Source of the DNA: Alphaproteobacteria bacterium
GTDB lineage: Bacteria; Pseudomonadota; Alphaproteobacteria; Bin95
NCBI GenBank assembly: GCA_963665325.3
Contig: CAXXWS020000002.1
Location: 497,644 to 561,643, forward strand
Direction of reading: 5' to 3'
DNA length: 64,000 nt
This document shows, piece by piece, positions 2,155 to 41,770 of this stretch. Below the pieces are notes generated by a model. That model was not told the DNA's origin. It made no database searches and was given only the letters and a program-made list of their open reading frames with translations. Within the stretch, counting starts at the first letter, position 1. Every line of letters starts with the position of its first letter. The position numbers and the translations under genes are program-made.

Positions 2155-2780
2155 GCTGGCGCGCCATGGAGCGGCCGTGGATTCCTGGAGCGCGCCCGTG
2201 GCGCTGGACCGCGCGCCATGGAGCGGCCGTGGATTCCTGGAGCGCGCCCGTGGCGCTGGACCGCGCGCCATGGAGCGGCCGTGGATTCCGTGGCGCGCGC
2301 CCGTGGGGCTGGCCCGCGCGCCATGGAGCGGCCGTGGATTCCTGGAGCGCGCCCGTGGGGCTGGCCGCGCGCCATGGAGCGGCCGTGGATTCCGTGGCGC
2401 GCGCCCGTGGGGCTGGCCCGCGCGCCATGGAGCGGCCGTGGATTCCTGGAGCGCGCCCGTGGCGCTGGACCGCGCGCCATGGAGCGGCCGTGGATTCCTG
2501 GAGCGCGCCCGTGGGGCTGGACCGCGCGCCATGGAGCGGCCGTGGATTCCTGGAGCGCGCCCGTGGGGCTGGCCGCGCGCCATGGAGCGGCCGTGGATTC
2601 CGTGGCGCGCGCCCGTGGGGCTGACCGCGCGCCATGGAGCGGCCGTGGATTCCGTGGCGCGCGCCCGTGGGGCTGACCGCGCGCCATGGAGCGGCCGTGG
2701 ATTCCGTGGCGCGCGCCCGTGGGGCTGGCCGTGCGCCATGGAGCGGCCGTGGATTCCTGGGGCGCAGCCGGCTCCACTGC
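2155..2780. repeat. tandem array of 12 copies of a ~52-bp unit (period 51-53 bp) with internally phased CC(A/G)TGG hexamers
   Basis: CCATGG cores at 2164, 2216, 2268, 2321, 2372, 2425, 2477, 2529, 2580, 2632, 2684 and 2736. There are two unit subtypes (..ATTCCTGGAGCGCGCCCGTGG.. and ..ATTCCGTGGCGCGCGCCCGTGG..). Units are directly adjacent with no unique spacers. Confidence 0.95.
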
Positions 2781-2802
2781 TTCGTCGGTTTTCCGCCGAG
2801 CC

Positions 2803-20781: not shown

Positions 20782-21636
20782 TCATGGCCTTGCCCGCCCG
20801 CTGCCCTCGTCCACCGTCGGCAGCGGCTTCCACTCGCGCGGCAGGAGGTTGAAGGCGGACCGCGCGCCGAGGCGCACCACCGTCTCCGATATGCGCAGCA
20901 GCCGCTCATGGCCCGACACGGCCGTCACCTCGGTCTCTGTCCCGGGCGCGCTCACCATCGCCGCCCGGCGAAGCCGGTGCCAGCGCACCACGCCCTCGAA
21001 TGCCGCAACCAGCCGCTCCAGGTCCGAGGCATGGATATCGTCGGCCAGCCGGACCCCGTGCTTCCAGCCTTCCTCCAGCCAGCCGTTCCAGCGCCGGCGT
21101 TCCTCCGCGTTGCGCGGGAACAGCACCGACGCCGGAGGCCGGGCCGCCTCCCACCCCCGCTCCAGCCAGTCGCGCCAGACCGGCGGCGCGCCCACGATCC
21201 GCTCCCCGGCCGCGATGCGGAGCACGCGTCTCGCGCTCGCCGCCCTGCCGGGCTCGATCCGGATCGCGTCCCGCGTCTCCGCCAGAACGGGCGGCATCAC
21301 CTGGAACCCGCCCCGGTCCAGCAGCAGCGCCCGGAAGTCGAATACCTGAGAGAGCGCCTTCGACCGCTTCTCCAGCAGCCGCGCAATCTCCCGGCCGCGA
21401 TGCGCCAGGCCCGCCTGCGAGGCCCATGACAAGGCCGCCAGACGCTGCGCCTCGCCCCGGCGCTTCGCCGCCCGCTCCTTCTCGCCGCCGTCGCTTTCGG
21501 GCGCCTCCATCTCCTTCAACGCCTGCAGGCTGGTTACAGGGCTGTTACCTGCCACCACATCCGGCGCTGCCCGGACCGGCATGACACCCGCCAGCAGCAG
21601 CGCGGCCGCGAACAAGACCGGCACCACCCGCTTCAT
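20782..21636 (-). CDS. dotC: DotC (TraI-like) T4BSS outer-membrane-complex protein
   Basis: Trimmed from track ORF 20782..21969 to the ATG at 21636 (ATGA overlap). Signal peptide MKRVVPVLFAAALLLAGVMPVRA. Position next to dotD and upstream of dotB as in IncI traH-traI-traJ. Confidence 0.65.
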   Translation of the reverse strand: MKRVVPVLFAAALLLAGVMPVRAAPDVVAGNSPVTSLQALKEMEAPESDGGEKERAAKRRGEAQRLAALSWASQAGLAHRGREIARLLEKRSKALSQVFDFRALLLDRGGFQVMPPVLAETRDAIRIEPGRAASARRVLRIAAGERIVGAPPVWRDWLERGWEAARPPASVLFPRNAEERRRWNGWLEEGWKHGVRLADDIHASDLERLVAAFEGVVRWHRLRRAAMVSAPGTETEVTAVSGHERLLRISETVVRLGARSAFNLLPREWKPLPTVDEGSGRARP

Positions 21637-22262
21637 CCGGACGTTCCTCCGGCCTCGTTCGCCGCCGGCGCTGCCTGCCTTCTGCGCAAGACGCCCACCG
21701 CCACGCCGTCCGCATATCCCGCGCCCGCTATCGCCACGGACAGGATGTCCGGCGCAATGGCCAGCAGCGCCGGCGAGCCGAACAACACCGCCGCGAAGCC
21801 GATGGTGGCGATCGCCACGCGGCTCTCCCTGAAGGCTGTCCGGGCCAGCAACCCGTTCTCGACGCCCCAACGCCGTGCCGCCCAGAACGAAAACCCGAAC
21901 AGCGCGCACCAGCAACCGCCGGCAACTGCGATATGCTTCCAGCCTGCCGTTTGCGGTCCCAATGCACACACCGTCAGCGACCAGGCGAGAGCCAGCGTCA
22001 ATATGAGAGAGATCCCCGCATCATGGAAAGAATCGCCGACCTCCTCTGGAGCCTTACATGCTTCGCCGGATACTTCTTTTCCGTTCTCTTCGTGGTCCTC
22101 CTGACTTACCGCCTCCGCGCCATCCTGTGGGGGCAACACACTTCCCGATCGTCCTGGATCACCTTTCTGTTCTTCGCGATTCTGGCCGGCGCGCTGGTCC
22201 TGCCCTGCTACGTCGATCTCAGCTTTCGACCCTCGCCCGCTCGCTGGTGAACGCCTCCTCAT
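21633..22262 (-). CDS. membrane protein, function unknown; true start probably internal (TTG 22001 or GTG 21971)
   Basis: The 3' two-thirds has high GC3 and about 3 TM helices (..CWCALFGFSFWAARRW.., ..IATIGFAAVLFGSPALLAI..). In the 5' ~240 nt, minus-frame GC3 is only ~55%, although an ATGA overlap exists at 22259-22262. Confidence 0.55.
   Translation of the reverse strand: MRRRSPASGRGSKAEIDVAGQDQRAGQNREEQKGDPGRSGSVLPPQDGAEAVSQEDHEENGKEVSGEACKAPEEVGDSFHDAGISLILTLALAWSLTVCALGPQTAGWKHIAVAGGCWCALFGFSFWAARRWGVENGLLARTAFRESRVAIATIGFAAVLFGSPALLAIAPDILSVAIAGAGYADGVAVGVLRRRQAAPAANEAGGTSG
22023..22250 (+). CDS. candidate opposite-strand small (75 aa) two-TM protein nested in the operon
   Basis: MERIADLLWSLTCFAGYFFSVLFVVLLTYRLRAILWGQHTSRSSWITFLFFAILAGALVLPCYVDL... 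Hand-counted codon-position GC in this frame is GC1 55 / GC2 48 / GC3 77%, which is coding-like. The overlapping minus frame gives 77/48/55. Confidence 0.35.
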   Translation: MERIADLLWSLTCFAGYFFSVLFVVLLTYRLRAILWGQHTSRSSWITFLFFAILAGALVLPCYVDLSFRPSPARW

Positions 22263-24491: not shown

Positions 24492-25066
24492 CGGCCCGCT
24501 CCCGCGCAGCGCCGCAGGGCCGTCCGCGCCTCGCGGTTCTCGCCCTCGCCGATCCGGTTCCAGACCGAGTTGTGGCCGTTCGAGACCAGCGCGCCCGTCA
24601 CCACCGCCGCATCGACGAAGCGCAGCACATCCGCCTTGTCGGCGATGACCGGGCTGTGAAAGCCCGCCGCCGGACCGCCGCCGCGCACGACCGGACCGAA
24701 CCGCTCCACCGGCCCGTCCGGATGGCCCGCGGCCGCCTGCACCGGCTTGCCGGCAGGAACCGTCCCGAAGGACAGATAGGCCTCCGCCTGCCCCGACGCC
24801 CGCTCGCACTGCACCGCGAAGCCGATACGCGGCCCGTTGTCGTCCCCGGTGAGCGGCTCCGCCACGGCGATCGTCAGGTAATCCCCGTCATCGACCCGGA
24901 TCGCGAACGACCGCGCCTCGGGCGTCTCGACACGCTGCGCATGCGCGGCCGCGGGCAACCCGCATGACAACGCCAGAAACAGCGCGACCGGTGCCGCAAC
25001 AGGCGGGCCACTTCTATTCTCTCGTCGCACCGAAAGCCCCCACGATCCCGTTTCGCTGGAAAACAC
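24488..25066 (-). CDS. putative lipoprotein, function unknown
   Basis: Lipobox FLALSCG. 2 further Cys. The start is uncertain: the GTG at 25066 overlaps the upstream gene by 53 nt. Confidence 0.55.
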   Translation of the reverse strand: MFSSETGSWGLSVRRENRSGPPVAAPVALFLALSCGLPAAAHAQRVETPEARSFAIRVDDGDYLTIAVAEPLTGDDNGPRIGFAVQCERASGQAEAYLSFGTVPAGKPVQAAAGHPDGPVERFGPVVRGGGPAAGFHSPVIADKADVLRFVDAAVVTGALVSNGHNSVWNRIGEGENREARTALRRCAGAGR

Positions 25067-26939
25067 CGCCTGCCTCGTTATGGCCGGCGCCGTAGAACCG
25101 GCCCTCGATCGAGCCGTTCATATCGCTCGCCTCGAACGCGCCCTGCGCGACAGAAATGCCTTCCCATCGCATGTCCGAAACCACACCGCCTCCGGTGTCC
25201 GTCATTCCCGTGAGTGCGACGTCCACGTCCGGTGCCGCCAGATCGTCGATGGCGAGCTCGGCATCGCCCCCGATGCGCAGGCCGCTTGTCCCGTCGAGGC
25301 CCACCACCGATCCCTGCCATACCGCCCTGCCGATCCCTGCCGGGTTCGTCTCCGGCCAGGCCCCGAACGAAACCGCGGTCGTCCCGTCCACCAGGCCGAA
25401 TACGCTGTCCTCGAACAAGGAGCCCCGGAAGCCGGACCCGTCGCCCCGCGCCAGCCGCTCCGCCAGCGCGTCCACGTCCAGGGCCCCCGACGCGCTCGAG
25501 GCGAAGCTGTCCGAACCCGCAAGCCGCTCGCCGCGCCGCCAGTCCGACGGCTCCACATGGTCGCCCCGATGCATCCCGCGACCGGCCGTCCGCGCCTCGT
25601 CTTCCTCATCGACATAGTCGTCGGCATATTGCCGGTAGGCGAGCGCCCAGCCGTTCGCGACCAGCCACGCATTCACGTCGATCCCGCCCGAGGAGCACTG
25701 GCCGATCGTGCGCCCGAAGCCGTCCGTCCCGCTGCCCGTGCAGCTCAACCCCGCAGCATGAGACCGCAGCGCCTCCGTCGCCGCCGCGCCGCAACCCCAT
25801 GACCGGCCCCAGGCCCGGCAGGTCTGCCGGCTCTCAGGCGCATCGATGCCGAACAGCCGGTAGCGCACGCCGTCGATATCGACCGTGTCGCCGTCTATCA
25901 CCCGGACCTCCCTGGCCGGCGCTACCGTCCCCGACCCGGGCGGGTTCGACCCGGAACCGGATACGGCGCCGAAGGCCCCCAGGATCCCGTTCTGCTCGAA
26001 GACGCCGGCGACTTCGTCCCTGTCGGGTCCGAAGAAGCCGCCCCTTATCCGGTTGCCGGCAACGCCCGCGTCGAAGGCCATTCTCGCCGTCACGTCGACC
26101 TCGGGCTCCTCGCCGGGCTCCAGCTCGCCCTCCTCCTCGACCGTCGTCTCCGTCACGTCGTGCAGGCTGACCGGCACATCCACGAAGCTCGCATCGGCAA
26201 ACGACGCGCCGGTCGACACGCTCACAATGTCGGTGAAGGCCGCATCGATCCGACCGACGACATCGCCGTCTTCGGCATCGTCGCCGAGCGCCTCGACCGA
26301 CCGGTAGGTGAGCGCCGCATCGCCATGCAGACGCCCTTCCGAAAACCCGCCGGTATCCGTCACCCCGACCATCCGGCCCCGCCAGACCGCGTTCACGTCC
26401 CGGCCCTCGGCGACCTCCGTCAGCCCCCCGAGCGCCAGCCCGTAGCGAAACTCGCGAAGCTCCGCATCCATGCCCGCGCGCTCCAGCAATACGCCGAAGC
26501 CGGCATGGCGCATCCAGCCGCCCCAGCTCTGCGCATCGAGGTCCGGCGCCCAAACCACGTCGATACCGCCAATCCGCTCGACAACGCCGGCGCTGGCGAG
26601 CGGTCCGGCATTGCCGATGCCGATCCCGCCGCCGCCCGACCCCGAGCAGCTCAGCCCCGAACATGCGGTGTCATGGACCGCGCTCTCGCCGTACCCGCGT
26701 TCCTCATGCACGCTCGTTGCGAACAGCGCATCCGCGCCTCCCAGAACCGAAGCCGCCCGCACCGAAGCGGCCCTTTCCCCATCCTCCGGCAAAGGCGTCG
26801 GTCTCTCTCCCGGCTCCGGACCCGCCGGCGCGATCCGGGCCGCTGGCCGCGACGGTCCCCCGTCGCCGCCGCAGGCCGACAGAACCGCGCCGCATGCCAG
26901 CAAGGCCGCGGCCAGACGCCCGTATCCCGATCCGCGCAT
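25014..26939 (-). CDS. lipoprotein: TbpB-like beta-barrel module, then a staphylococcal-nuclease (SNase) domain, then a second TbpB-like beta-barrel module
   Basis: Lipobox VLSACGG. Each barrel ends with the TbpB-type signature (..NRIRGGFFGPDRDEVAGVFEQNGILGAFGAV and ..IEGRFYGAGHNEAGGVFQRNGIVGAFGATRE). The SNase core is VRVIDGDTVDIDGVRYRLFGIDAPES..GRTIGQC..VNAWLVANGWALAYRQY, with the Ca-binding and catalytic D/D/E/R positions present (about nt 25530-25913). Confidence 0.8.
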   Translation of the reverse strand: MRGSGYGRLAAALLACGAVLSACGGDGGPSRPAARIAPAGPEPGERPTPLPEDGERAASVRAASVLGGADALFATSVHEERGYGESAVHDTACSGLSCSGSGGGGIGIGNAGPLASAGVVERIGGIDVVWAPDLDAQSWGGWMRHAGFGVLLERAGMDAELREFRYGLALGGLTEVAEGRDVNAVWRGRMVGVTDTGGFSEGRLHGDAALTYRSVEALGDDAEDGDVVGRIDAAFTDIVSVSTGASFADASFVDVPVSLHDVTETTVEEEGELEPGEEPEVDVTARMAFDAGVAGNRIRGGFFGPDRDEVAGVFEQNGILGAFGAVSGSGSNPPGSGTVAPAREVRVIDGDTVDIDGVRYRLFGIDAPESRQTCRAWGRSWGCGAAATEALRSHAAGLSCTGSGTDGFGRTIGQCSSGGIDVNAWLVANGWALAYRQYADDYVDEEDEARTAGRGMHRGDHVEPSDWRRGERLAGSDSFASSASGALDVDALAERLARGDGSGFRGSLFEDSVFGLVDGTTAVSFGAWPETNPAGIGRAVWQGSVVGLDGTSGLRIGGDAELAIDDLAAPDVDVALTGMTDTGGGVVSDMRWEGISVAQGAFEASDMNGSIEGRFYGAGHNEAGGVFQRNGIVGAFGATRE

Positions 26940-30432: not shown

Positions 30433-30827
30433 GACCCGTCCTCCCACACGCCGAACGTCGCCGGCAGGAGGCGGCACCAGCGCTCCAGCTCCTCTTCGCC
30501 GCAGATCTCCGGGCGCAGCGTCCTGACGGCCGAGCCGACCTCCGCCCGCTCCCGGTTCCACGCCCCGAGCTCCTTCTGCACCGCCAGAAGCCGGCGCATC
30601 CCGGCAACCTCGCGCGCCAGCGCCTCGCGGACCTTCAGGCCCTCGAGGCGCGTCGCCGCCCAGCCGTCCGGAGCCGCCGGCGTGTCCTGCTTCGGGGCGC
30701 TGTTCTGCGCGGGAGCCGTGTTCTCTGCCGGGACCGCGTCCTGCGCCGGGGCCGCAGACGGCAACGCCATCGCGCCCGCCAGCGACAGCAGCGTTGCCAG
30801 ACCCGAAATGCGCGCCGCCCTCAGCAT
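30429..30827 (-). CDS. small secreted protein, function unknown
   Basis: Trimmed from track ORF 30429..32006 to the ATG at 30827. Signal peptide MLRAARISGLATLLSLAGAMALPSAAPA. Pro/Ala-rich linker, helical C-terminus with 2 Cys. Confidence 0.55.
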   Translation of the reverse strand: MLRAARISGLATLLSLAGAMALPSAAPAQDAVPAENTAPAQNSAPKQDTPAAPDGWAATRLEGLKVREALAREVAGMRRLLAVQKELGAWNRERAEVGSAVRTLRPEICGEEELERWCRLLPATFGVWEDGS

Positions 30828-31897
30828 CCCTGGCAGCTCCCGACCGAGAGGGTCCCGAACGAGCCCGTGCCGGTCACCGATACAGACCCGGTGACGTCGG
30901 CGCCCGAGGCCGTGAGGTTGGCCTCGGCCTCGATATTCTCGGCCTCCACGTCGCCGGCGATATCGGCGCTCGCCGCCTCCAGCGCGCCCCTCGCCTCCAC
31001 CTCGTCGGCATTGACCACGCCCGTGAACGCCGCATCGCCCCGGAACACCAGCCCGTCCGGCACCGTGAAACTCCCCATGACCTCGACCGATCCCGCCGTC
31101 GTCGCCGTGCCCACCGTCAGCGCCCGGTCGATCCGGAACTCGCCCGCCCGCATGACGCGGTCCACCTGCAGCTCCTCGGCCGTCAGCACCCGCACGCCCA
31201 CCAGGTCGTTGTTGTTCATGTCGAGATCGGTCTCCATGCGCGCGGAGTCCGGACAGCCGGCGCGTACCCGCCGGAACACCGCGTCCCCGCACACGCTCTC
31301 CCGGTCGAGCTGCCGGTAGACGGCAAGCGCGCGGGCGCGCGGATGGCCGCCGGCCGCCGCCCGGAACGCGCCCAGGTCCTCCTGCACGGTCGGCCCGAGC
31401 AGCCGGCCCGCCGCGTCCACCACGCCGAGCGCCTGTGCGCCGCGCGCCTCGAAGACCGCATTCGCCGGAAAGCGCGTGTCGTTCGCATCCGCCAGCTGCA
31501 TCGACAAGAGCCGGACATTGCCCCCGCCGAGCGAGACCGCCCAGGCCTGGAGCGGGCGCTTCATCGCGTCGCCCGCCTCGTCGAAGCCCTGCGGCAGCAG
31601 CCTGTCGGTCCTCAGCGCGCCGATATCGATCCGCCGCGCCGTCCCGGCCGCGAGCGCGGCATAGGTCCCGTATTCCGAGCGCACATGGCTCTCGACCGCC
31701 TGCGCCAGCACCACCAGCTTCCGCGCCGAGCCGACCGCGTTCGAGGCCGCGATGCGGCCCTGCAGCCAGATCGCGAAACCGAGCGCGATCACCACCAGCA
31801 CGATCACCGCCACCAGCGCGCCCACAGGCGTCATGCCCCGCCAGCGCCCGATCCTGAGGCGCCGCGCGAACCCTGGTCTGCGCATGGGACCCCTCAT
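30821..31897 (-). CDS. pilV: PilV-like minor pilin / tip adhesin (shufflon-N-like constant region, fixed C-terminus)
   Basis: Basic leader plus hydrophobic helix (..RWRGMTPVGALVAVIVLVVIALGF..). Conserved ..METDLDMNNNDLVGV.. block as in R64 PilV. Ends ..LSVGSCQGC. Confidence 0.65.
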   Translation of the reverse strand: MRGPMRRPGFARRLRIGRWRGMTPVGALVAVIVLVVIALGFAIWLQGRIAASNAVGSARKLVVLAQAVESHVRSEYGTYAALAAGTARRIDIGALRTDRLLPQGFDEAGDAMKRPLQAWAVSLGGGNVRLLSMQLADANDTRFPANAVFEARGAQALGVVDAAGRLLGPTVQEDLGAFRAAAGGHPRARALAVYRQLDRESVCGDAVFRRVRAGCPDSARMETDLDMNNNDLVGVRVLTAEELQVDRVMRAGEFRIDRALTVGTATTAGSVEVMGSFTVPDGLVFRGDAAFTGVVNADEVEARGALEAASADIAGDVEAENIEAEANLTASGADVTGSVSVTGTGSFGTLSVGSCQGC

Positions 31898-33138
31898 TGC
31901 ACCACCGGCTCGCAGCCCGTGCAGCCGCCCGTCGTGACCGCACCGGTGAACGAGCCCGTATTCGCGCCGAGACCGCCGTCGATCCGCAGCCTCCGCGCCC
32001 GGGCATTGCCCGAGGCCTCGAGCCTGCCGCCGGCGTCCAGGCGCCCGGTCACATCCAGGCTGCCCGCGCCCGCTTTGCCCTCCACCGCCAGCGCCGTGTC
32101 CGTGGCAGTGAGCCCGGTGCCGACCGACAGCAGCTGCGGGATGTTGAAGGCCTGCGCCGGCGCGCCCGCATGGCCGAACCGGAACCCGCCATCCGCCCGG
32201 AACGCCGTCGCCGGAATGTCGCCCCCGAACGCCATGCTGCCGGGCTGGCCGGTCCGGCCCACGGTCACATTGCCGGCGACCTCAGCCGGCGTCCCGCCCG
32301 TCCCGGCAAAGCGGCCCTCCCGGTTGGTCCCCGCGTCGACCCCGGCGACGCTGCCGGCGTCCAGCACCCCGTAGCAGCGCCGGTCGTCCGCCAGCGCCGC
32401 ATCCCGGCAGTCCTCGCCGGCGACGACCGCAACCGGGCTCTCGATCTCGGCCGCCGGCAGCAGCGCCTGGCCGACCGCGCCCGCGTTCGGGCCGAACACG
32501 AAATCCGTCTCCATGCGCGCAAGCTCGGGACGCCCGCCCACCGGCCGCCGGTAGAGCCGGTCCTCGTCGTGGCCCACCGCATGGTCCGCCGTTGCGAACA
32601 GCGAGCCCGCCGGCAAAGTCCCGAGCACCGCCCGGACCGCCGGCAGCCGGTCATGCATCGCCGTCGCCTCGCCGCCGACCGCGCCGACAAGGTCGAGGCC
32701 GCCCATCACCGCGCCCGCCCTGAGCGCCGGCGCCCGGAACGAAAGCTCCGGGCCCGAGAGCGAGCAGGCCGCCATCGGAACGCTGTCGACCGTCACCGCG
32801 CCATAGGCAGCCGTCGCCACCGTGCCCCCGGCGCGACCGACCGTGCCGAGGCCGTCCGGGAGGAGGGACCAGCCCTTCAGCTGCGCCGGCGTCACGACAC
32901 CCGCCGCCGTCACCCGGCCCGACTGGACCGCCCGGTGGACCGCCGTGCAGGTCATCGCCCAGATGCGCCCGCGCTCGCGGTCGATCTCCGCGAGCCGCAA
33001 CTCCTCCTGCTGGCGCTCCCAGGCCGCCAGCACGACCACTACCGTCATGACCAGGAACAGCGCGCCCACAGGCAGCGCCGCGCCGCGGCGCGCGCCCCGG
33101 CGAAGACGGCAGAACAGCGATGTCCCGAGGCGCGCCAC
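31894..33138 (-). CDS. second PilV-like minor pilin / adhesin paralog
   Basis: ..RRGAALPVGALFLVMTVVVVLAAW.. leader and helix. ..ARMETDFVFGPNAG.. block. Ends ..GGCTGCEPVVQ. ATGA overlap at 31894-31897. GTG start. Confidence 0.6.
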   Translation of the reverse strand: MARLGTSLFCRLRRGARRGAALPVGALFLVMTVVVVLAAWERQQEELRLAEIDRERGRIWAMTCTAVHRAVQSGRVTAAGVVTPAQLKGWSLLPDGLGTVGRAGGTVATAAYGAVTVDSVPMAACSLSGPELSFRAPALRAGAVMGGLDLVGAVGGEATAMHDRLPAVRAVLGTLPAGSLFATADHAVGHDEDRLYRRPVGGRPELARMETDFVFGPNAGAVGQALLPAAEIESPVAVVAGEDCRDAALADDRRCYGVLDAGSVAGVDAGTNREGRFAGTGGTPAEVAGNVTVGRTGQPGSMAFGGDIPATAFRADGGFRFGHAGAPAQAFNIPQLLSVGTGLTATDTALAVEGKAGAGSLDVTGRLDAGGRLEASGNARARRLRIDGGLGANTGSFTGAVTTGGCTGCEPVVQ

Positions 33139-33141: not shown

Positions 33142-33681
33142 TCACCCGAACACGAAGGTCAGGGCGTTGGACGCCGTGCCGTTGTCGCACTGGTTGTTGA
33201 GCCAGGTGACCGTGCGCGTCACCGGCGCGCCGGCATGCACCGCCGCCGGGGCGCTGCCGGCCACCTGCATCCGCACGATCCCCGAGCCCGCCCGCGTCCG
33301 GCCCACATAGGCCTGGCCCAGGTCCTTGCAGGTCTCGTCGTCCAGATCCGCGAACGTGATCGCGAACCGCCCGCCATTGCCCAGGATCGTCACCGCGCCG
33401 CCGAACGGATGACGGATCGTCGCCGACCCGCCCGTGCCCACCCGCGAGCCGTCCGGGATCTTCCCGAACCCGGCCAGGATCGGCACAAGGTCGTCATTCG
33501 CGCTGTCGCCGTAGCTGGCCTGGCCCGAATAGATCCTCTCGACATTGGCGCGCAGCTGGTTCAGCAGCTCGACCGACTCGCCCTCGCTCAGCCGCGCCGT
33601 GATCCCGTTGTAGATCCCCACAACCGCGACGATCGCGAAGAGGCCCGCTACCACCGACAGCAAGACTCCGATAGGGTTCAT
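33142..33681 (-). CDS. pilS: type IVb major pilin candidate (PilS-like) with an unusually short leader
   Basis: GAGGAGGGG SD. MNPIGVLLSVVAGLFAIVAVVGIYNGI hydrophobic N-terminus, followed by a globular domain with a C-terminal Cys pair (..ETCKDL.. and ..NNQCDNG..). Confidence 0.65.
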   Translation of the reverse strand: MNPIGVLLSVVAGLFAIVAVVGIYNGITARLSEGESVELLNQLRANVERIYSGQASYGDSANDDLVPILAGFGKIPDGSRVGTGGSATIRHPFGGAVTILGNGGRFAITFADLDDETCKDLGQAYVGRTRAGSGIVRMQVAGSAPAAVHAGAPVTRTVTWLNNQCDNGTASNALTFVFG

Positions 33682-33693
33682 GTTCCCCTCCTC

Positions 33694-34263
33694 TCAGTAG
33701 CTTCGTTCCACCTGGGTCGAGATGTCGAAACTCACCCACATGATCAGGATCATCTGCGCCGTCCCGAGCGCCATCAGCACCGTGTTCAGAACCATGGTGC
33801 GCATCCGCATCATCGCCTCCGAGCGCTCCACCCAGCGCTCCACGAACCCGGCAAGCGTCTCTTCCCAGTCCGCGCGCCCGTCCATCGCGCCCGCAACCGC
33901 AACCAGCGTCTCGTCCGGGAATCCCTGGCGGGCCGCCGAGAGCGCCGAGCCGAACCCCAGACCCTCGTTCAGCATCAGCTCCCGAACCCGGCGCATCCGC
34001 GAGCGCACATAGGGCGAGGCGCCCCGCTCGAATTGCTCGAACGTGTCCCGGTTCAGGTCCACGCCCATGCGCAGGAACTCCACGCACACGAACAGGAACC
34101 CGCTCCCCGACAGCATCCGGTAGAGCGAAAAGGGCGGGATCCGGTCCGCGAACACGCGCCCCCGGCCGGTCCAGCGCAGCACCACGAGCCGGAACGCCGC
34201 CAGAAACAGCAGGAAGGCGAGCCCGATGAGTGTGCTCTCGGTATCTGATGGCGGGATGGTCAC
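33694..34263 (-). CDS. pilR: T2SSF-domain platform protein, C-terminal-half equivalent of PilR/GspF
   Basis: One T2SSF-like cytoplasmic domain flanked by TM helices (..LNEGLGFGSALSAARQGFPDETLVAVAGAMDGRADWEETL..). GTG start at 34261-34263, immediately next to the transposon. Confidence 0.7.
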   Translation of the reverse strand: MTIPPSDTESTLIGLAFLLFLAAFRLVVLRWTGRGRVFADRIPPFSLYRMLSGSGFLFVCVEFLRMGVDLNRDTFEQFERGASPYVRSRMRRVRELMLNEGLGFGSALSAARQGFPDETLVAVAGAMDGRADWEETLAGFVERWVERSEAMMRMRTMVLNTVLMALGTAQMILIMWVSFDISTQVERSY

Positions 34264-34499
34264 GTTGTTCGATGGTTTTCAGGCGTCGGGCCGGGCGTGA
34301 CGGCGGGGGTGTCGGACGGCCGTCGGCGCGTCAAGCCGCTTCGCGGCTCCTGCGCTGCGCTCCGGCCCTTCGGGTGACCCGCCGCCGTCCCTCCGACGGA
34401 GTGCATCCATGGCCGTAAGCAAGCTTCCGGCCACGGGCCGGCCGCTTTACGCAGTGTGACAATGGGAGCGGTGTTACCCGTTACCGTTACCCTCTCTCC

Positions 34500-35498
34500 C
34501 TAGGGGTTCGAGGCGGTAACGGTTTTCGGTAACGTGTCCCTGCGGTCGTTGCCGTTGAGGGCGGCGAGGCGGTATCCGCCTTCGGATGCGCGCTCGACGC
34601 GTCCTTCGCGGACGAGCCTGTGCAGCGCCTCGGCGACGGTTGCGGGCCGGGTTGCCGCGCGCTCGCGGATCCGGCGCTGGGAGAGCGGCGCGTCGGCGTC
34701 GGCGAGGGCCTGCAGGATGCGCCGTTCGGGGGTATCCGGCTCCGGCGCCTGGTCTTCCGGCGTCTCGCGCAACCGCAGGGCGGGGCGCTCGTCGTCGTCG
34801 GCGAGTTCGATCTCGAGGTCTTCGAGGCCAGGGGCGTCGCGATGCTCGACGGTCATGAGGATCTGGCGGTCTCGCCGGCGCAGGTACAGATTCGAATCGC
34901 CCCAGGCGTGAAGTTCGCTGCTGCCGCGCAGCGCCTGCCCGGGCCGGGAGCCGCCGCTCTTTCGTGCGTGATGGACGAGGAGGACGGCGGTTTCGAAGCG
35001 GCGCTGTATGTCGCGCAGGAAGCCCAGCATGGGGGCGACCTCGGCGACGGTATTTTCGTCGACGCCGTGCAGGCGCACGAGGGGGTCGAGGACGACGAGG
35101 CGGGGTGAGACGCGCTCCACCGTCTCGACCAGGCGCTGGCGATCGGCGCGATGGTCGAGACGCAGCGTGGGCACGTCGATGACGGCGATGTCGAGGGTCT
35201 CGAACGCGGTGCCTGCCGCCTTTGCGATGCCCTGGAGGCGTGCGCGCACGATATGGCCGGCGTCCTCGGCGGCGAACAGCAGCACGGGGCCGCTTGCGGC
35301 GGGACGGAAGTGGCGCAGGCAGGGGACGCCGGCGGCGACCGCGACGGCGATGTCGAGTGCGAGGAAGGATTTGCCGCACTTGGGCTCGCCGCCGACGATG
35401 CCGACGCCCTGCTCGGACCACAACGCCTCGACCATCCAGCGGCGCGCCTGGGGGCGCTCTTCGAGCTCCGCCGGCGCCCGTGTCGGGAAGCCCTTCAC
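34500..35498 (-). CDS. RepA/RecA-like AAA_25-type ATPase with a C-terminal winged-helix domain
   Basis: Trimmed from track ORF 34500..36512 to the GTG at 35496-35498 (GTGA overlap). Walker A GGEPKCGKS, Walker B-like RLVVLDPL. C-terminal wHTH ..RRILQALADADAPLSQRRIRERAATRPATVAEALHRLVREGRVER... Confidence 0.7.
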   Translation of the reverse strand: MKGFPTRAPAELEERPQARRWMVEALWSEQGVGIVGGEPKCGKSFLALDIAVAVAAGVPCLRHFRPAASGPVLLFAAEDAGHIVRARLQGIAKAAGTAFETLDIAVIDVPTLRLDHRADRQRLVETVERVSPRLVVLDPLVRLHGVDENTVAEVAPMLGFLRDIQRRFETAVLLVHHARKSGGSRPGQALRGSSELHAWGDSNLYLRRRDRQILMTVEHRDAPGLEDLEIELADDDERPALRLRETPEDQAPEPDTPERRILQALADADAPLSQRRIRERAATRPATVAEALHRLVREGRVERASEGGYRLAALNGNDRRDTLPKTVTASNP

Positions 35499-36328
35499 CG
35501 CCGCGCCCTCCTCGGCTTGGCGGGTTCGCCCAGGGTCTCGATGAAGAGCTTCTCGTCGAGGACCTCGCGCTCCTTCTCGGCGGCGGCGGCGAGCAGGGCG
35601 TCGGCCATGACGGTGAGCGCCCGCGGGTTGCCGTCGGCATGGGCGACCAGGGTGTCCTTGAGGCCCGCGGTCATGAGGCCGGGATTGCCGGCCTGCTCGA
35701 TCAGATGGTCGAGCAGGGCCGCGAGGTCGCCGGCCTCGGCCTTGGTCATGACCAGGCGCTGGCGGATGCGCGAGGCGATGGGCTGCAGATCGGGCTGGCG
35801 GAGCTTGTCGAGCAGGCGCGTGTCGCCGGCGAGGACGACCGAGAGGATGGCGCGCGAGTCGAAGTCGGTCGAAGCCAGCAGGCGGATCTCGGAGAACACC
35901 GAGGGCAGCAGCTCCTGGGCCTCGTCGACGAGCACGACGGGGCGCATGCGGGTATCGTCGACATGGGCGAGCCAGCGCTCGCGCAGGCTTTTGAAGCTGG
36001 CCCAGCGGTTGTTGTACATCAGGTCGACGCCGAACATCTCGCCGATCTCGCGGTAGAAGTCGGACAGCCGGGAGGAGGGATGGGTGATGGCGGCGATGCT
36101 GAGCCCCTCGCAGCGGCCGAGACGGTCGGCGAGCAGGCGCAACGCCACACTCTTTCCGGCGCCGGGCTCGCCGGCGATCAAGGCGAAGCCGCCCTGGCGC
36201 ACCAGGTGGCGCTCGATCCTGAGGCAGAAGCTGTCGACGGCAGGCGTCGCCATGAGACTGTCGACCGGCAGGTCGGTGGCGAAGGGGTTCCACTTGAGCC
36301 CGTAGAAGGTGAGCAGTTCCCGGTTCAT
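35495..36328 (-). CDS. TniB/ExeA-like AAA+ transposition ATPase
   Basis: Walker A GEPGAGKS, Walker B VVLVDEAQ. ATGA overlap with the transposase stop. Confidence 0.8.
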   Translation of the reverse strand: MNRELLTFYGLKWNPFATDLPVDSLMATPAVDSFCLRIERHLVRQGGFALIAGEPGAGKSVALRLLADRLGRCEGLSIAAITHPSSRLSDFYREIGEMFGVDLMYNNRWASFKSLRERWLAHVDDTRMRPVVLVDEAQELLPSVFSEIRLLASTDFDSRAILSVVLAGDTRLLDKLRQPDLQPIASRIRQRLVMTKAEAGDLAALLDHLIEQAGNPGLMTAGLKDTLVAHADGNPRALTVMADALLAAAAEKEREVLDEKLFIETLGEPAKPRRARR

Positions 36329-37800
36329 GGCGCATCTCCCCGATCTTCGTCCTCGCCCGGACCGGGCGTCTTGTCATGGGGCAGCCAGGCCGGCGGCAGG
36401 CCGGTTGCGGCCTGGGCGTCGAGCATGCCCTTGAGCAGCGGCGGAAGTTCCCCCGTCCCCGCGCCGCCATTGCCATCGTTGCCGCCGGGGCCGGCGGGAC
36501 GGCGCACGCCATCGGCGTTGCCGCGCTTGTCGAGGGGGTACAGCGTGCACAGGCGCTCGCCGCCTCGACCGTCGATCAGATCGACGCTGGCGAGGTTCCA
36601 GCGCGCGTAACGGATCCAGGCCTCGCGCAGGTGGCGCCACGGCTGTGGCACCTGGTAGCGGATGCCCTCGACCGAGACGGTGCCGTCCGAGCGCCTGAGC
36701 GTGCGCTTCCTGGTGATGCGGAAGGCCGCCTTGAGCTCGGCCGAGCCGGGGCAGGATCTCGACGCGTCGACGCTCCCGGCCAGGCGTTGATGCGGCGTCA
36801 TGCCGAGCTCGCGGTGCTTGCGGCGGTGATAGTCCTGCTCCAGCCAGGCGATGGTGGCGTCGTTGAGCATCTTCAAGGTAAGCGCGTCGACGCCTTCGAG
36901 CTGAGCCATCAGGCGCGATTCGACCGTGCCCCAGAACGACTCGATCTTGCCGTTCTGATGGGGGCTGTAAGCGAGCGTCGTGACCCCCGCGATGCCGAGC
37001 CGGTGCAACCCCTCCTCGACCTCGCCCGCGGTCATCGCCGCGCCGTTGTCGGTCAGCAGGGACCTCGGCAGACCGCGCTTCATGAAGGCCTGGCAAAGGC
37101 CGTGGACGAACACCTCGGCGGTCTCGGCGAGGTACCACTGAAGGTGGCAGCCGAGGCGCGAGTGGTCGTCGAGGAAGCCGAGCAGGATCGGCGTCTTCCA
37201 CTCGCCCGAGGCGGTCAGCACGCGACGCTTGGCGCTGTGCATGTCGGCGTGCCACAGGGCGTGAGAGCGCGAGACCTCGTAGCTCAATACCTCGCGGGCT
37301 TCGACCGCCGGCCTGGCCTCGCTCTCATGCCACTTGCGCCGGCGCTTGCGTACCAGCCCGCGAGCCCGCATCGCCCGGGTCAGCGTCGCGTAGGACGGTA
37401 TCGGGCCGAGCTCGGGATCGGCCTCGACCCGCGCGGCCAGATTCTCGTGATGAAGCTGCGCCGACCACGACGGATGCGCCCGGTACTGCTCGTGCAGCGC
37501 CTCGATCAGCGTCGGCGACATCGCGCGCGGGCGCCCGGCATCGGCGCGCGGGCGCCGCTTGAGCGCCCCCACCGGATCGTTGTCCGCCGCCCGCGCCTGG
37601 TAGTACCAGCGCTCGATCGTGGACACCGCGAAGCGCACCCGGCCCTTGCCGGACGGGTGATCCCACTCGCGTTCGGCAAGCCGCTCAAGCTCGGCGTGCA
37701 GCCGCCCCGCCGGCGGCGGCGAGGCCAGAAGCGGCCCGACCACCGCGAAGCGCAACCGCGCCCACCGGTCGCGACGCTCGCTCCCGTCGTTGCTGTTCAT
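36325..37800 (-). CDS. DDE (rve/Mu-type) transposase, TniA/TnsB-like
   Basis: HTH-rich N-terminus. DDE triad context LWHADMH, LLTDNGAAM, HQNGKIESFW. Mu-transposase-like C-terminal barrel (..VSVEGIRYQVP..). Confidence 0.85.
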   Translation of the reverse strand: MNSNDGSERRDRWARLRFAVVGPLLASPPPAGRLHAELERLAEREWDHPSGKGRVRFAVSTIERWYYQARAADNDPVGALKRRPRADAGRPRAMSPTLIEALHEQYRAHPSWSAQLHHENLAARVEADPELGPIPSYATLTRAMRARGLVRKRRRKWHESEARPAVEAREVLSYEVSRSHALWHADMHSAKRRVLTASGEWKTPILLGFLDDHSRLGCHLQWYLAETAEVFVHGLCQAFMKRGLPRSLLTDNGAAMTAGEVEEGLHRLGIAGVTTLAYSPHQNGKIESFWGTVESRLMAQLEGVDALTLKMLNDATIAWLEQDYHRRKHRELGMTPHQRLAGSVDASRSCPGSAELKAAFRITRKRTLRRSDGTVSVEGIRYQVPQPWRHLREAWIRYARWNLASVDLIDGRGGERLCTLYPLDKRGNADGVRRPAGPGGNDGNGGAGTGELPPLLKGMLDAQAATGLPPAWLPHDKTPGPGEDEDRGDAP

Positions 37801-37848
37801 TCCGGCATCCCCCTCGCTGCTTCGTGGAGGTGCCGATGATGCGGTGCC

Positions 37849-38463
37849 CTATCCGTGCATCATAGAAACGCTTTCTGCGGGCGAAGCCGGACCTGCGCCG
37901 AGCGCGCAAAAGCCGGTCCACGGCATCAGCCAGACCAGGCTCCGCAGCAGCCGCGAGCGGAAGCCACGGCCCCGCATGATGCGCAGCAGCCGGCGCAGCG
38001 GCGCCTCTTCGGGCGGCGCCGCCAGCTCGCCCCGTCTCGCCTGCCACTCCCGGGTCAGCGGGAAGGCTTCCAGCCACCAGCGCCGCCAGCGCTTCAGCGT
38101 CGAGGCCGGAACCCCGCACCGCCGCGCGATCGTCTGCAACCGCGCGCCGCCGGCCACAGCCAGCGCACTCACCACAAGGAACAGCGCCCCGACGTAAAAG
38201 CGCCTGCCGAAGAAACGCACCGACGGCGGCTTCACGCGGCGTCGGCACACCGAACAGCACAGGCTGAAGCGCCGAACGTCGTTCCGAAGATTCGCCGCCA
38301 GACCGTGCGGCTTGCGCGGGTAGCTCGCGCTGTGAAGCGCGCCGCCGCAGCGCGGGCAACCCGCCGCCCGGCACGCCTCCGCCTCGGCCGCGTCGACCTG
38401 CTTCAGAAAATCCCAAACCCGGGCGTTGGAGAGATTGGAGTGCCGGAACAGCTTGTGCGACAT
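37849..38463 (-). CDS. Zn-ribbon plus HTH protein (possible TniQ-like target selector or regulator)
   Basis: CPRCGG..(26 aa)..CCSVCRRR four-Cys cluster. HTH-like LQTIARRCGVPASTLKRWRRWW. First gene of the transposon operon. Confidence 0.55.
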   Translation of the reverse strand: MSHKLFRHSNLSNARVWDFLKQVDAAEAEACRAAGCPRCGGALHSASYPRKPHGLAANLRNDVRRFSLCCSVCRRRVKPPSVRFFGRRFYVGALFLVVSALAVAGGARLQTIARRCGVPASTLKRWRRWWLEAFPLTREWQARRGELAAPPEEAPLRRLLRIMRGRGFRSRLLRSLVWLMPWTGFCALGAGPASPAESVSMMHG

Positions 38464-38607
38464 TGGGGCCGTCTCAGGTTGATGTCACTGTCACCGAGAC
38501 AAGCCCTCCGGCGGCCTTCTTGCAAGATCGCCGGGGGGCACCCAATCCAAAACCTCGATTAATCCGAGCCGATCAGCCCCTGATCGCCGCTGAAAGCCTG
38601 CGCCCGC

Positions 38608-39150
38608 TCACCCGATCTCGATATCGTTCGCGTAGAAACCCTCCGAGACCCAGGCGAACGAGCGCGACCAGATATCCCAGCGCGACCGGTCGCTCACCTC
38701 CAGCATCGCCGGAATGACCTCGTAGCCCATGAACCAGGTCATGCCGATGCAGCCCACGAAGATCACCAGCGGCAGAAACATCGCGCTCGCCACCGCGCGC
38801 ACCTGCTTCGAGCGCATCTCCGCGACGCGCGCCGCCGCCAGGAACAGAACCTCAGCCCGCGCCCGGCCGAGCCCGTAGAAGATCATCGCCTCCGAGGCCG
38901 GAACCCAGCGCGACAGCTCCACCGCGAAATCGTCCCCGCCGCCCGCAAGCGCCGCCTGCCAGTCCCGAAGCATCCGCACCCGGATCGTCTCGCGCGACTT
39001 CGCCTGCATCACCACGCCGAGCGCCTCGCGCAGACCAAGCCCGCCCTGGAGCAGGTCGTGCAGCAGATACCAGATGTCGATCCGCGCCTCCGTCCCCGCC
39101 GCCAGGAACCGCCGCACCGGAAACCAGACCGCCCCCCAGAGACGCCTCAT
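38608..39150 (-). CDS. pilR: T2SSF-domain platform protein, N-terminal-half equivalent of PilR/GspF
   Basis: Trimmed to the ATG at 39150 (ATGA overlap with the pilQ stop). ..LLHDLLQGGLGLREALGVVMQ..VPASEAMIFYGLGRARAEVLF.. is T2SSF-like, followed by a TM helix. Stop at 38608-38610, at the transposon edge. Confidence 0.7.
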   Translation of the reverse strand: MRRLWGAVWFPVRRFLAAGTEARIDIWYLLHDLLQGGLGLREALGVVMQAKSRETIRVRMLRDWQAALAGGGDDFAVELSRWVPASEAMIFYGLGRARAEVLFLAAARVAEMRSKQVRAVASAMFLPLVIFVGCIGMTWFMGYEVIPAMLEVSDRSRWDIWSRSFAWVSEGFYANDIEIG

Positions 39151-40838
39151 TCCACCGCCTCCGCGCCCGCGACCAGCACCGGCTTGCCCGGCGCGGGCGC
39201 GGCGCCGGCATGACCCGGCCCGTCCTCCACCCGGCCTTCGCCCGGAGGCCCGAACGCCGCCTTCGCCACGGCGATCTCCGCGCCCTTCAGCATCGCGTCC
39301 GCCGGATCGACCCGGCCCTTGCCGACCGCGCCCCAGATCTTCCGTCCGATCGGGACCCCGCCCATCGCGCCCGTCCAGTGGTTCCACGCGCCCACCGCAT
39401 CCCGCTTCTGGACGAACCTGAGATAGCCGTCGTCCGGGACGATCCACTCCGCCACCGCAAGCGGGCGCACATAGCCCGCCCACGCCGCCAGCGAGAGCGC
39501 CGACTGGCCCGCCGTCCGGCAACCGGCGCAGCCCTCCGGATTGCGGTAGCGGACCTCCGGGCCCAGCAGCGCCGCCAGCTCCTCCGGGAGGTCCCGGCCC
39601 TCCGGCAGAACCGGCAGCGCGCAGGACGGGCAGAGCAGCGGCACCAGCGTCTGCTTCATCAGGAGGCGCACATTGCCGGGCTTGGTCACCTCCGACACCT
39701 CGACGCCGAGGTCCATCAGCCGGAACAGGATGCCGTTCGCCGTGTGCACGTGGATTGTCGTCCACACCTGGTGGCCCGAGTCGATGAACTGCAGCACCTG
39801 CTGCGCGCCCATCTTGTCGCGGATCTCGCCCACCATCCCCGAGGCCGGATGCACCCGCACGAAATGCATCAGCGCGGCTGCAAACCCGAGCCCCCGCTCC
39901 TCGCCGATGCCCCGGGTCGGAACCGCAATCTGCACCGCGCCGGGTATGTCGTATTCGACCGGGTCCTCCAGCGTGATCATGTTGAGCTTCCCGCCATGCT
40001 CACGCATCTGGAGGTTCAGGTTCACCGCAAGCGTCGTCGACTTGCCGTCGCCCGTCGTCCCGCCGATGAAGATGCCGCCGTATTTCGACATCCGGATCTC
40101 GCGGAACAGGCCCGCCACCTCCGCCGTGAAGCCCAGGTCCTCCAGCGTCTGCCGGCCCCCGACCTGGTCGCGGTAGAAAAGCCGCATGTAGAGGTGGTGG
40201 CCCTCCGGCTCGTGCGGACCCGCCTCGCAGCGCAGCGCCGCGATCTCCTCCGGAAGCGGGAACGTCTCCGAGCGCCTCACGCTGAAACCCTGGAAGCTCG
40301 CACGCTGCAGCGAGGTCTGCCGCGAGCCTTCGTCCTTCACGAAGAACAGGAACCCGAACACCTGCTCCGCCTCCCGCACCGTCATCGCAGAACCCAGGGG
40401 CAGCTTGCGGTCGTTCACGATCGCGAACACCCGGCAGTCGTCCGGGCCCTTCTCCAGCACCACGTCCGAAGCCCGGGCCCGGGCCGCCTCCGTGAAGATC
40501 GCGACAAGCCCCTCCACGATCCGCGGGTTCACGTCCAGGCTCTCGTCACGGACCCGGTTGCCGCGCCAGACCTCCGCCACCTCCTGGAGCGAGGCCGTCT
40601 CCTCCCGGAACTGGCCCCGGACCGCGCCCGTGCGCTGCAACTCCACCAGCAGCGCGCGCAGCTCCACGTCGTTCGCATAGCCGTCCGCGATCAGCACGCG
40701 CCCGTCCGACCAGACCGCGCAGCGCTCCCGGAAGCGCTCGTCCATCCGCTCCCAGCGCAACAGGCCCGACGGCATCACCTCCGGAGGTCGCTCCTTGAAC
40801 ATGAGGCGGCCCCACCATGTGTCCCGCCAGCCCGTCAT
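39147..40838 (-). CDS. pilQ: GspE/PilB-family pilus assembly ATPase (R64 PilQ-like)
   Basis: Trimmed from track ORF 39147..42071 to the ATG at 40838 (ATGA overlap). Walker A GGTTGDGKSTT, LEDPVEY, Asp box MVGEIRD, His box TTIHVHTA, tetra-Cys CPSC..CAGC. Confidence 0.85.
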   Translation of the reverse strand: MTGWRDTWWGRLMFKERPPEVMPSGLLRWERMDERFRERCAVWSDGRVLIADGYANDVELRALLVELQRTGAVRGQFREETASLQEVAEVWRGNRVRDESLDVNPRIVEGLVAIFTEAARARASDVVLEKGPDDCRVFAIVNDRKLPLGSAMTVREAEQVFGFLFFVKDEGSRQTSLQRASFQGFSVRRSETFPLPEEIAALRCEAGPHEPEGHHLYMRLFYRDQVGGRQTLEDLGFTAEVAGLFREIRMSKYGGIFIGGTTGDGKSTTLAVNLNLQMREHGGKLNMITLEDPVEYDIPGAVQIAVPTRGIGEERGLGFAAALMHFVRVHPASGMVGEIRDKMGAQQVLQFIDSGHQVWTTIHVHTANGILFRLMDLGVEVSEVTKPGNVRLLMKQTLVPLLCPSCALPVLPEGRDLPEELAALLGPEVRYRNPEGCAGCRTAGQSALSLAAWAGYVRPLAVAEWIVPDDGYLRFVQKRDAVGAWNHWTGAMGGVPIGRKIWGAVGKGRVDPADAMLKGAEIAVAKAAFGPPGEGRVEDGPGHAGAAPAPGKPVLVAGAEAVE

Positions 40839-41770
40839 CGCCCGGACCTCGACCGGTAGGGGAGGTGCGGGCTCGTCCAGCCCTTCACGCGAACGCCCGG
40901 AGGACGCGCCTCGACCGAGACCACCCTCACGCCGCCCGGCAAGCGGTCGCCGGCCTCCACCCGCCAGACGTTCTCGCCGTCCGTCACCGCCGCGCGCAGC
41001 GCCTCGCCCGATCCCATCACCGCGAACCAGCCATAGGCGCGGGGCGGCTCGGGAGGCGGCGCCTTCTTCTCTTCCTTCGGCGCCGTCCTGGCCGCCTCGG
41101 CGGCCGCCTTCGCCTGCTGCTCGCGCACGATCTCCGCCCGCGCCGCCTCCAGCATCGCCGCATGCGCGCCGCGAACCCGCGCATCCGCCTCGCGGCGCGC
41201 CGTCTCCAGCTTCAGGGCTTCCGCCGCCCTCGCGGCCGCAGACTTGTTCAACGCCGCCGCCAGCTCGATCTCCGAGCCCACAAGCTCCTTCAGGATCGCC
41301 TGACGGTCCCGGCACAGCACCAGAACCTCGCGCTCCAGCTCCAGAGCCTCGCTGAACTGGCCCTCGTTCACCGCGCTCGACAGCATCCGCACGATCGCCT
41401 CGCGCGGACACTCGAAGGTCCGCAATATCGCCGGCTCGTAAGCGATAACCGGAGGACCGGAAGGAGAAGCCGGGGCGGCAGGGGGAGGATCGGCCTGCCG
41501 CCCCGGCAGACCGGCAGCGGCCGCAGCCGCCCCGCCCGCACGCCGCCCCGGCGCGCCGGCAGCGGACGGGGCGGCCACAGTACCCGCCGCCGCCGGTGTT
41601 GGTTGAAGATCGTCGCCCGCGCCGGACGGCTCCGATGCAGGCCTGAACTCCGGAGCCGGAGTCTTGATCGACGACCCGTCGGGGTCCTGCGCCGAGACCT
41701 CGCCGAACGACAGCACCGCCACCGACAGCGCGACCGCCGACAGCAGGAGACCGCGACGGAGGCCGGCCAC
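40835..41770 (-). CDS. PilP-like periplasmic pilus biogenesis protein
   Basis: Trimmed from track ORF 40835..42697 to the GTG at 41768-41770. Signal peptide VAGLRRGLLLSAVALSVAVLSFGEVSA, coiled-coil region, and a PilP-like C-terminal beta domain (..YGWFAVMGSGEALRAAVTDGENVWRVEAGDRLPGGVRVVSVE..). Confidence 0.55.
   Translation of the reverse strand: MAGLRRGLLLSAVALSVAVLSFGEVSAQDPDGSSIKTPAPEFRPASEPSGAGDDLQPTPAAAGTVAAPSAAGAPGRRAGGAAAAAAGLPGRQADPPPAAPASPSGPPVIAYEPAILRTFECPREAIVRMLSSAVNEGQFSEALELEREVLVLCRDRQAILKELVGSEIELAAALNKSAAARAAEALKLETARREADARVRGAHAAMLEAARAEIVREQQAKAAAEAARTAPKEEKKAPPPEPPRAYGWFAVMGSGEALRAAVTDGENVWRVEAGDRLPGGVRVVSVEARPPGVRVKGWTSPHLPYRSRSGR

Follow-up and report, generated by a model that had tools for sequence, protein, structure and literature searches.

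The stretch of DNA analyzed here, which we call the window, comprises 64,000 nucleotides of contig CAXXWS020000002.1 from GCA_963665325.3, the assembly of a sponge-associated Alphaproteobacteria bacterium. Its minus strand carries a pil operon in which the gene for the platform protein of a type IVb pilus is split in two by a transposon. We conclude, with little room for doubt, that a Tn6049-family transposon of 4384 bp inserted behind codon 180 of a 355-codon pilR-type gene; the transposon occupies 34227-38610 and has imperfect TGAG...CTCA termini and a 5-bp target duplication. The features of the locus are listed below in window coordinates, each with the basis for its assignment.

33142-33681, minus strand: type IVb prepilin gene of the PilS type, which follows the platform gene in the operon (PF08805; same order in the homologous contigs L001-L003).
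33694-34221, minus strand: 3' portion of the native platform gene, from codon 181 to codon 355 and the stop (LAFLLFLAAFRL...; homologue alignment and reconstruction).
34222-34226, no strand: left copy of the target-site duplication, CCCGA (reconstruction, termini and empty-site contigs).
34227-38610, minus strand: Tn6049-like transposon of 4384 bp, with four genes co-oriented with the pil operon (copy alignments, depth steps and an empty-site contig).
34227-34263, minus strand: downstream terminus of the transposon (...CATCAGATACCGAGAGCACACTCA), which holds the GTG at 34261-34263 and 12 foreign codons, MTIPPSDTESTL (termini comparison and reconstruction).
34500-35498, minus strand: gene for a 332-residue protein with an AAA_25 domain similar to the RSF1010 RepA helicase and a C-terminal winged helix-turn-helix (AAA_25, E 4e-36; RepA structure 1g8y, E 2e-8; strong Shine-Dalgarno sequence).
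35495-36328, minus strand: gene for a 277-residue AAA_22 ATPase of the ExeA/GspA/TniB-like type (52% identity, E 2e-98, to the 277-residue 'gspA' ATPase of Tn6049).
36325-37800, minus strand: gene for a 491-residue DDE transposase with HTH_32 and rve domains (Pfam; 50% identity over 94% of the Tn6049 transposase).
37849-38463, minus strand: gene for a 204-residue protein with a CxxC zinc ribbon and an HTH_23 domain, annotated as an accessory DNA-binding protein (Pfam HTH_23; 40% identity, E 3e-30, to the 181-residue product of the first gene of Tn6049 on pMOL30).
38581-38610, minus strand: upstream terminus of the transposon, TGAGCGGGCGCAGGCTTTCAGCGG... on the coding strand (conserved in 65 copies; homologous to the Tn6049 end TGTGCATAAGCAGCTTTCG).
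38611-38615, no strand: right copy of the target-site duplication, CCCGA on the plus strand and TCGGG on the coding strand (the joint of the empty site is ambiguous over these letters).
38611-39150, minus strand: 5' portion of the native platform gene, encoding residues 1-180 (...ANDIEIG; collinear over this range with the single 355-residue homologues P0001-P0004).
39147-40850, start approximate, minus strand: gene for the T2SSE (PilQ-type) assembly ATPase, which precedes the platform gene (PF00437, E 7e-41).

Two minus-strand open reading frames (ORFs) flank the transposon. The first, at 38608-39150, encodes 180 residues and ends with a TGA at 38608-38610; the second, at 33694-34263, encodes 189 residues and begins with a GTG at 34261-34263. 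The tetranucleotide TCAC is found at both edges, at 34260-34263 and 38608-38611. A first-pass annotation of the window had located these ORF ends and TCAC copies, all of which were recovered when the sequence was re-read, and had proposed that the transposon sits exactly on a GTGA start/stop overlap between two platform half-genes.

The interrupted gene is a single predicted pilR-type platform gene and not a natural pair of half-genes. When both halves were joined and used as the query, the 11 closest homologues (P0001-P0011) were single proteins of 349-356 residues, with 57-88% identity and 95-100% query coverage. Their alignment runs unbroken across the junction, from ...ANDxExG directly into xxFLL... 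(in P0003, ...EGFYANDLEIGVLFLLFLAAFRL...). Aligned to these homologues, the N-half of the window ends in ...ANDIEIG and the C-half reads MTIPPSDTESTL-IG-LAFLLFLAAFRL..., in which the 12 residues after the GTG (MTIPPSDTESTL) have no counterpart in any homologue. These 12 foreign residues and the second occurrence of 'IG' explain the combined length of the two halves (369 = 355 + 14). In the contigs encoding P0003 and P0002 (L001-L004), the platform is a single ORF between the T2SSE ATPase and PilS genes, with a 4-bp overlap at the ATPase stop and the PilS gene after it. The ATG of the window gene likewise overlaps the stop of its upstream ATPase gene by 4 bp.

The native frame can be restored from the window itself. 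Removal of 34227-38610 and one copy of CCCGA gives a continuous 355-residue ORF (...EGFYANDIEIGLAFLLFLAAFRL...) in one frame; its junction, ...GAT ATC GAG ATC GGG CTC GCC TTC CTG..., is collinear with L001. The excision proposed earlier, of 34264-38607 and one TCAC, does yield ...GAG ATC GGG TGA CC... as described, which in the reconstruction is a stop followed by a frameshift. Three short homologue matches (P0029, P0055, P0057) were checked as possible half-genes and all are truncated or fragmentary. P0029 was traced to a contig (L086) with a rearranged locus, where the gene breaks off at about residue 140; the contigs of P0055 and P0057 are short, at about 5 and 18 kb.

The boundaries of the element were defined through its other copies. 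Relatives of the transposase number 238 in the GTDB genome collection, and 80 loci (L005-L084) were used for end mapping by blastn with the window element and 200 nt of flank on each side. Termini and flanks were read in 65 copies. In most of the 80 loci, the alignment extends from query position 201 to 4584, equivalent to window positions 38610 to 34227; in several lineages it ends early at the downstream end, near query position 4251. All copies begin with TGAG(N)G(N)GC... and end with ...GC(N)CTCA, and the flanks of the 65 are mutually unrelated. A direct repeat of 5 bp flanks 35 of these copies, one of 4 bp flanks 21 and one of 3 bp flanks a single copy. The TGA of the N-half (38608-38610) thus corresponds to the first three bases of the element, and the GTG of the C-half lies 35-37 nt inside its other end. 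The TCAC pair is a coincidence that arises from the element's own end sequences: the two junctions have 28 different 4-mers in common within their surrounding 100-nt windows and, given a TGA stop and a GTG start, two further bases are needed for the match (p about 0.05).

Other placements of the ends were considered and rejected. Ends at GTGACA-like motifs near 34455 and 38490 are incompatible with copy alignments that reach 34227 and 38610. A 6-bp duplication, CCCGAT, with the element beginning at 34228 was discarded because every copy ends in ...CTCA, and the T at 34227 therefore belongs to the element. A generic inverted-repeat search on 34100-38800 did not report the terminal repeats, which it missed because they are short and imperfect; the ends came from the comparison of copies.

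Variation at the downstream end is observed in part of the family. In loci L010, L012-L014, L017-L019, L021-L031, L033 and L036, from the metagenome-assembled genomes (MAGs) CAXXVO, CBDEUP and CAXXIZ, the alignment extends only to about element position 4050. Where termini were located, in copies from CAXXVO and CBDEUP, the element is 5185-5192 bp long and carries a different segment, about 0.8 kb longer, before the same terminal sequence. The family is also hugely amplified, with up to about 33 near-identical copies in one Alphaproteobacteria MAG (CBDEUT...) and many more in four or five other MAGs.

Both the occupied and the empty site are present in public sequencing runs. Logan contigs of runs X1-X4 were placed on window positions 33400-39500, and the junction sequence was present in sponge-metagenome and related runs. 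Contigs of X1, X2 and X3 join 34221 to 38611 with six ambiguous letters, skipping 4389 nt, as is expected for a 4384-nt element plus 5 bp. The loose sequence on these contigs translates as ...IG LAFLLFL(A/V)AF..., an unbroken ORF. The occupied left junction (34226/34227) is crossed by a 125-nt contig (34160-34253) with a depth of 87.8 in X1 and 26.7 in X2, and the occupied right junction (38610/38611) by a 58-nt contig (38583-38640) with a depth of 25.9 in X2; the occupied-junction contigs of both runs match the window without mismatch. In X2, the depths of the occupied (25.9) and empty (25.5) alleles sum to that of the shared flank (50.1), and the insertion is therefore polymorphic among co-existing strains. 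The element itself is 12-80 times deeper than the flanking single-copy DNA in the sponge runs, with many unrelated flanks abutting at exactly 34227 and 38610.

The first-pass annotation had suggested that the empty site be recovered from uninterrupted clusters and that the ends be defined by other copies. Both approaches gave clear answers: homologues and contigs have one continuous ORF, with 34221 joined to 38611, and the 65 copies place the termini at 34227 and 38610. Its recognition that a transposon separates the two platform halves is borne out, since this segment encodes an rve transposase and an AAA_22 ATPase and recurs in many copies elsewhere. It had also anticipated a short target duplication, which exists as the 5-bp CCCGA and not as TCAC. 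The location of the insertion exactly on a GTGA overlap, with edges at 34264 and 38607, is contradicted by the termini of the other copies. Nor are two intact ORFs preserved; these are two fragments of one 355-residue ORF, and their 369 residues include 12 encoded by the transposon and two that are duplicated. Two alternatives had been offered for the native arrangement. The second, a single pilR that was split with a fortuitous 4-bp match, holds true after correction of the boundaries. The first, favoured by its title, in which two coupled cistrons had their overlap duplicated, is refuted by the single-ORF empty-site homologues, the 34221-38611 joint and the position of the termini.

Comparison with plasmid sequences relates the element to Tn6049. 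In tblastn searches, the transposase is 50% identical over 94% of the query (E 9e-115) to genes annotated in RefSeq as 'IS481 family transposase' on pMOL28 and pMOL30 of Cupriavidus metallidurans CH34 and on Pseudomonas aeruginosa pHS87a. The gene order on pMOL30 is a 181-residue protein, a 479-residue transposase, a 277-residue AAA ATPase and then a 71-residue ORF. This copy (NC_007971.2; L085, 2695-6211) is 3517 bp long, lies in pbrU and is flanked by a 6-bp direct repeat, CTATCG (L085, 2689-2694 and 6212-6217). Tn6049 has been described as a 3.5-kb transposon with 12 copies in CH34, always with a gspA-like ATPase, and as inserted in pbrU (PMC2864759, PMC3384475); 12-bp imperfect inverted repeats (TGTGCaTaAGCA) and, for the pHS87a copy, a 4-bp duplication were reported (PMC4739549). 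Duplication length seems variable across the family, at 4 bp, 6 bp and, for the copies analyzed here, 4-5 bp.

The two elements share a core order of zinc-ribbon/HTH protein, rve transposase and AAA_22 ATPase, with 40%, 50% and 52% identity, respectively. Both have short, imperfect, TG-initiated ends with the motif GCAG(G)CTTTC (the Tn6049 end TGTGCATAAGCAGCTTTCG resembles TGAGCGGGCGCAGGCTTTCAG in the window), and both are multi-copy and disrupt genes (PMC2864759, PMC3384475). In the window element, the ATPase gene is directly downstream and overlaps the transposase stop, as ATGA at 36325-36328; the GTG start of the AAA_25 gene in turn overlaps the ATPase stop as GTGA (35495-35498). The elements differ in size (4384 bp versus 3517 bp), in their termini (TGAG versus TGTG) and in abundance, the family of the window element reaching tens of copies per genome in sponge-associated Alphaproteobacteria. 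They also differ in gene content, as the fourth gene (AAA_25 with winged helix-turn-helix) occupies the place of the 71-residue ORF in the Tn6049 of CH34. Given these differences in size and gene content, the element is a relative or variant and not Tn6049 itself. It is a new four-gene member or sub-lineage of the Tn6049 family. Neither the element nor the upstream operon gave a megablast match among the PLSDB plasmids, and Tn6049 was found by protein-level search only.

More distant families were also considered. The IS481 model is the best NCBIfam match of the transposase (NF033577, E 8e-36), and the two groups share the rve DDE core, TG-initiated ends and short duplications. However, the match scores 123.9 bits against a curated cut-off of 224, and IS481 elements are single-gene elements of about 1 kb, whereas in the window element an AAA+ ATPase is obligatorily linked and two more genes are present. 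At the level of Pfam domains, at which this comparison was made, Mu (MuA/MuB), Tn7 (TnsB/TnsC), Tn5053/Tn402 (TniA/TniB) and Tn552 resemble it in pairing a DDE transposase of the rve fold with a neighbouring P-loop ATPase, and in having TG...CA-type ends and target duplications close to 5 bp. The window element is distinguished by an ATPase of the AAA_22/ExeA type and a duplication of 4-5 bp, and no homologues of TnsA, TniQ or a resolvase were found in it at this level. PADLOC made no defence-system assignment for the genes of the element and returned only a weak P-loop match. Around the stop codon of the AAA_25 gene, at 34470-34530, there is an inverted pair of GTTACC/GGTAAC-type repeats (gttacccgttaccgttaccc ... 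ggtaacggttttcggtaacg), which could be a protein-binding site or terminator.

The family of the interrupted gene was assigned from its homologues and gene context. The restored ORF encodes a single polytopic protein of 355 residues, with an ATPase gene upstream and a PilS prepilin gene downstream, and this synteny is the same in L001-L003. PF00482 (T2SSF) is matched by 35 of 52 aligned homologues, with a best E of 1e-9. By tblastn, the protein is 24-28% identical to plasmid genes annotated as 'type II secretion system F family' or PilR2, mostly on conjugative plasmids; in a PDB profile search with the platform, PilC was retrieved only at a non-significant E of 0.26. Taken together, this supports a probable PilR-type (GspF/PilC-family) platform of a conjugative-type IVb pilus operon. 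PilR of the IncI1 plasmid R64 and PilR2 of PAPI-1/ICEclc-type elements are likewise single polytopic proteins; their genes are flanked by those for a T2SSE ATPase and a PilS-type prepilin, with genes for Shufflon_N/PilV-like proteins next and a T4SS_TraI-like gene nearby. Compared with these, the window platform is very divergent and is interrupted. Its resemblance to TadB/TadC of Tad/Flp pili, in that each fragment amounts to about one T2SSF-like half, is superficial: the Tad genes are ancient paralogues, while the split in the window results from a recent, polymorphic insertion into a single gene, and the platform is a single ORF in all close homologues as well as in the empty-site allele of the same samples.

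The most probable course of events explains the apparent tidiness of the locus. The break falls after residue 180; on one side of it is the periplasmic loop following the first membrane segment, and on the other the second transmembrane helix, the hydrophobic stretch LAFLLFLAAFRLVVL. As the element starts with an in-frame TGA, the upstream fragment stops immediately; a GTG within the last 37 bases of the element is by chance in frame with the downstream fragment. Insertion would have proceeded by DDE (rve) chemistry with staggered target cuts 4-5 bp apart, probably helped by the AAA_22 ATPase in the manner of MuB, TnsC and TniB, ATPases that assist their respective transposases. The N-terminal fragment could still be produced, as its original start codon and the coupling with the ATPase gene are retained. 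The C-terminal fragment has neither a ribosome-binding site nor coupling at its GTG. The duplex energy with the anti-Shine-Dalgarno sequence is +0.1 kcal/mol before the GTG at 34263 (no Shine-Dalgarno match), as compared with -9.5 for the platform ATG, -12.5 for pilS and -8 to -12 kcal/mol for three of the four transposon genes. A terminator-like hairpin is present at 38554-38568, 42-56 nt inside the upstream end, and the downstream pil genes would now rely on read-through from the co-oriented transposon genes. A sigma-70 promoter scan of the element ends found 0 sites, the two untranslated ends gave RNA folds that did not surpass those of shuffled sequences (z-scores -1.0 and -0.3), and no convincing terminator was found at the downstream end of the element. 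On these predictions, the platform protein is most likely lost and the gene inactivated.

Several observations weigh against parts of this interpretation. A flanking repeat is absent in 8 of the 65 copies. The empty-site contigs deviate from the window at a few flanking bases, which indicates that they derive from co-existing strains and are not a proven precursor. Neither half nor the restored protein has a Pfam T2SSF match at E<=0.01. The T2SSF domain that the first-pass annotation had ascribed to the N-half is thus upheld through the homologues and not by a match of its own, and the family assignment rests on those homologues and on gene context. With respect to inactivation, the in-frame GTGs at codons 37 and 59 of the C-half have moderate Shine-Dalgarno matches, and split membrane proteins sometimes reassemble.

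A real insertion could nevertheless be tolerated if both fragments were made and assembled into a working platform, leaving the pilus functional. The break does lie between two homologous protein halves at a loop/transmembrane boundary, and downstream transcription is plausible given an element that is co-oriented with the operon and ends without a convincing terminator. However, the C-terminal fragment has neither a Shine-Dalgarno sequence nor coupling, the hairpin at 38554-38568 lies just inside the upstream end, and sister pil clusters are decaying (split ATPase in L002, truncated platform in L086), which fits loss of function. We regard a functional split as very unlikely. A natural gene fission, by which an N-terminal fragment and a C-terminal fragment started in or near the transposon end on read-through transcripts would reassemble as a two-piece platform like TadB/TadC, is if anything less likely again; were it true, it would explain the persistence of the occupied allele at about half or more of the population.

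It is highly improbable that the interruption is an assembly artefact, in which a high-copy repeat was misplaced between contigs and the gene is intact in the organism. Such an error might be suspected of an element that is 12-80 times deeper than its flanks, in samples that also hold an intact allele. Yet the sequences on either side are the halves of a single gene and show a perfect 5-bp duplication. Each occupied junction is crossed by independent Logan contigs (the left one in X1 and X2, the right one in X2), and the X2 allele depths sum to the flank depth. Finally, we give practically no credence to a platform natively encoded by two translationally coupled cistrons, like TadB/TadC, with a GTGA overlap whose TCAC was duplicated so that both ORFs were kept: the paired TCAC at 34260-34263 and 38608-38611, and the frequency of 4-bp start/stop overlaps in the operon and even within the transposon (36325-36328, 35495-35498), are outweighed by close homologues that are all single proteins of 349-356 residues (the short matches being truncations or fragments), by empty-site contigs that skip 4389 and not 4348 nt, by termini from 65 copies that sit 36 bp and 3 bp off the proposed edges, and by a GTG that has no Shine-Dalgarno sequence and is followed by 12 residues unmatched in homologues.

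The locus is a routine, recent and polymorphic insertional disruption of one gene by a Tn6049-family member. The preserved coupling is an illusion created by the end sequences, with a TGA at one end and an open frame with a GTG at the other, and the insertion carries little weight for pilus biology. A general caution follows: in genomes of 70% G+C with frequent 4-bp overlaps, a tetranucleotide shared at ORF edges does not count as evidence of a transposon boundary. The analysis is of modest value in providing base-exact ends, a 4-5-bp duplication and the gene content of a Tn6049-related lineage with an extra RepA-like gene, a lineage whose copy number has grown to tens per genome in sponge-associated Alphaproteobacteria. 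Its novelty is limited to this new, amplified four-gene member.

Lesions were also found in sister pil clusters. In L002 (4368-6004), the T2SSE ATPase is split into 321 and 223 residues. The platform of L086 (7001-7633) ends prematurely, at about residue 140, next to a rearranged region that has a phage-type integrase. In L001 (8857-11154), but not in L002, the PilV-like gene is followed by an inserted gene for a 765-residue DDE_Tnp_1/DruA protein. These lesions fit gene decay and, with the polymorphic insertion in the window, ongoing transposon-driven decay in symbiont genomes.

Further genes lie on the minus strand downstream of the prepilin gene in the window. Two consecutive Shufflon_N/PilV-like proteins are encoded at 31894-33138 and 30821-31897, and further along from the pil genes there is a T4SS_TraI-like protein (20782-21969, E 1e-53). 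The pil operon appears to be part of an integrative-conjugative or plasmid-like region of the PAPI-1/R64 type. The same gene block encodes, at 25014-26939, a 641-residue protein with a staphylococcal-nuclease (SNase) domain and a TbpB-like beta-barrel match.

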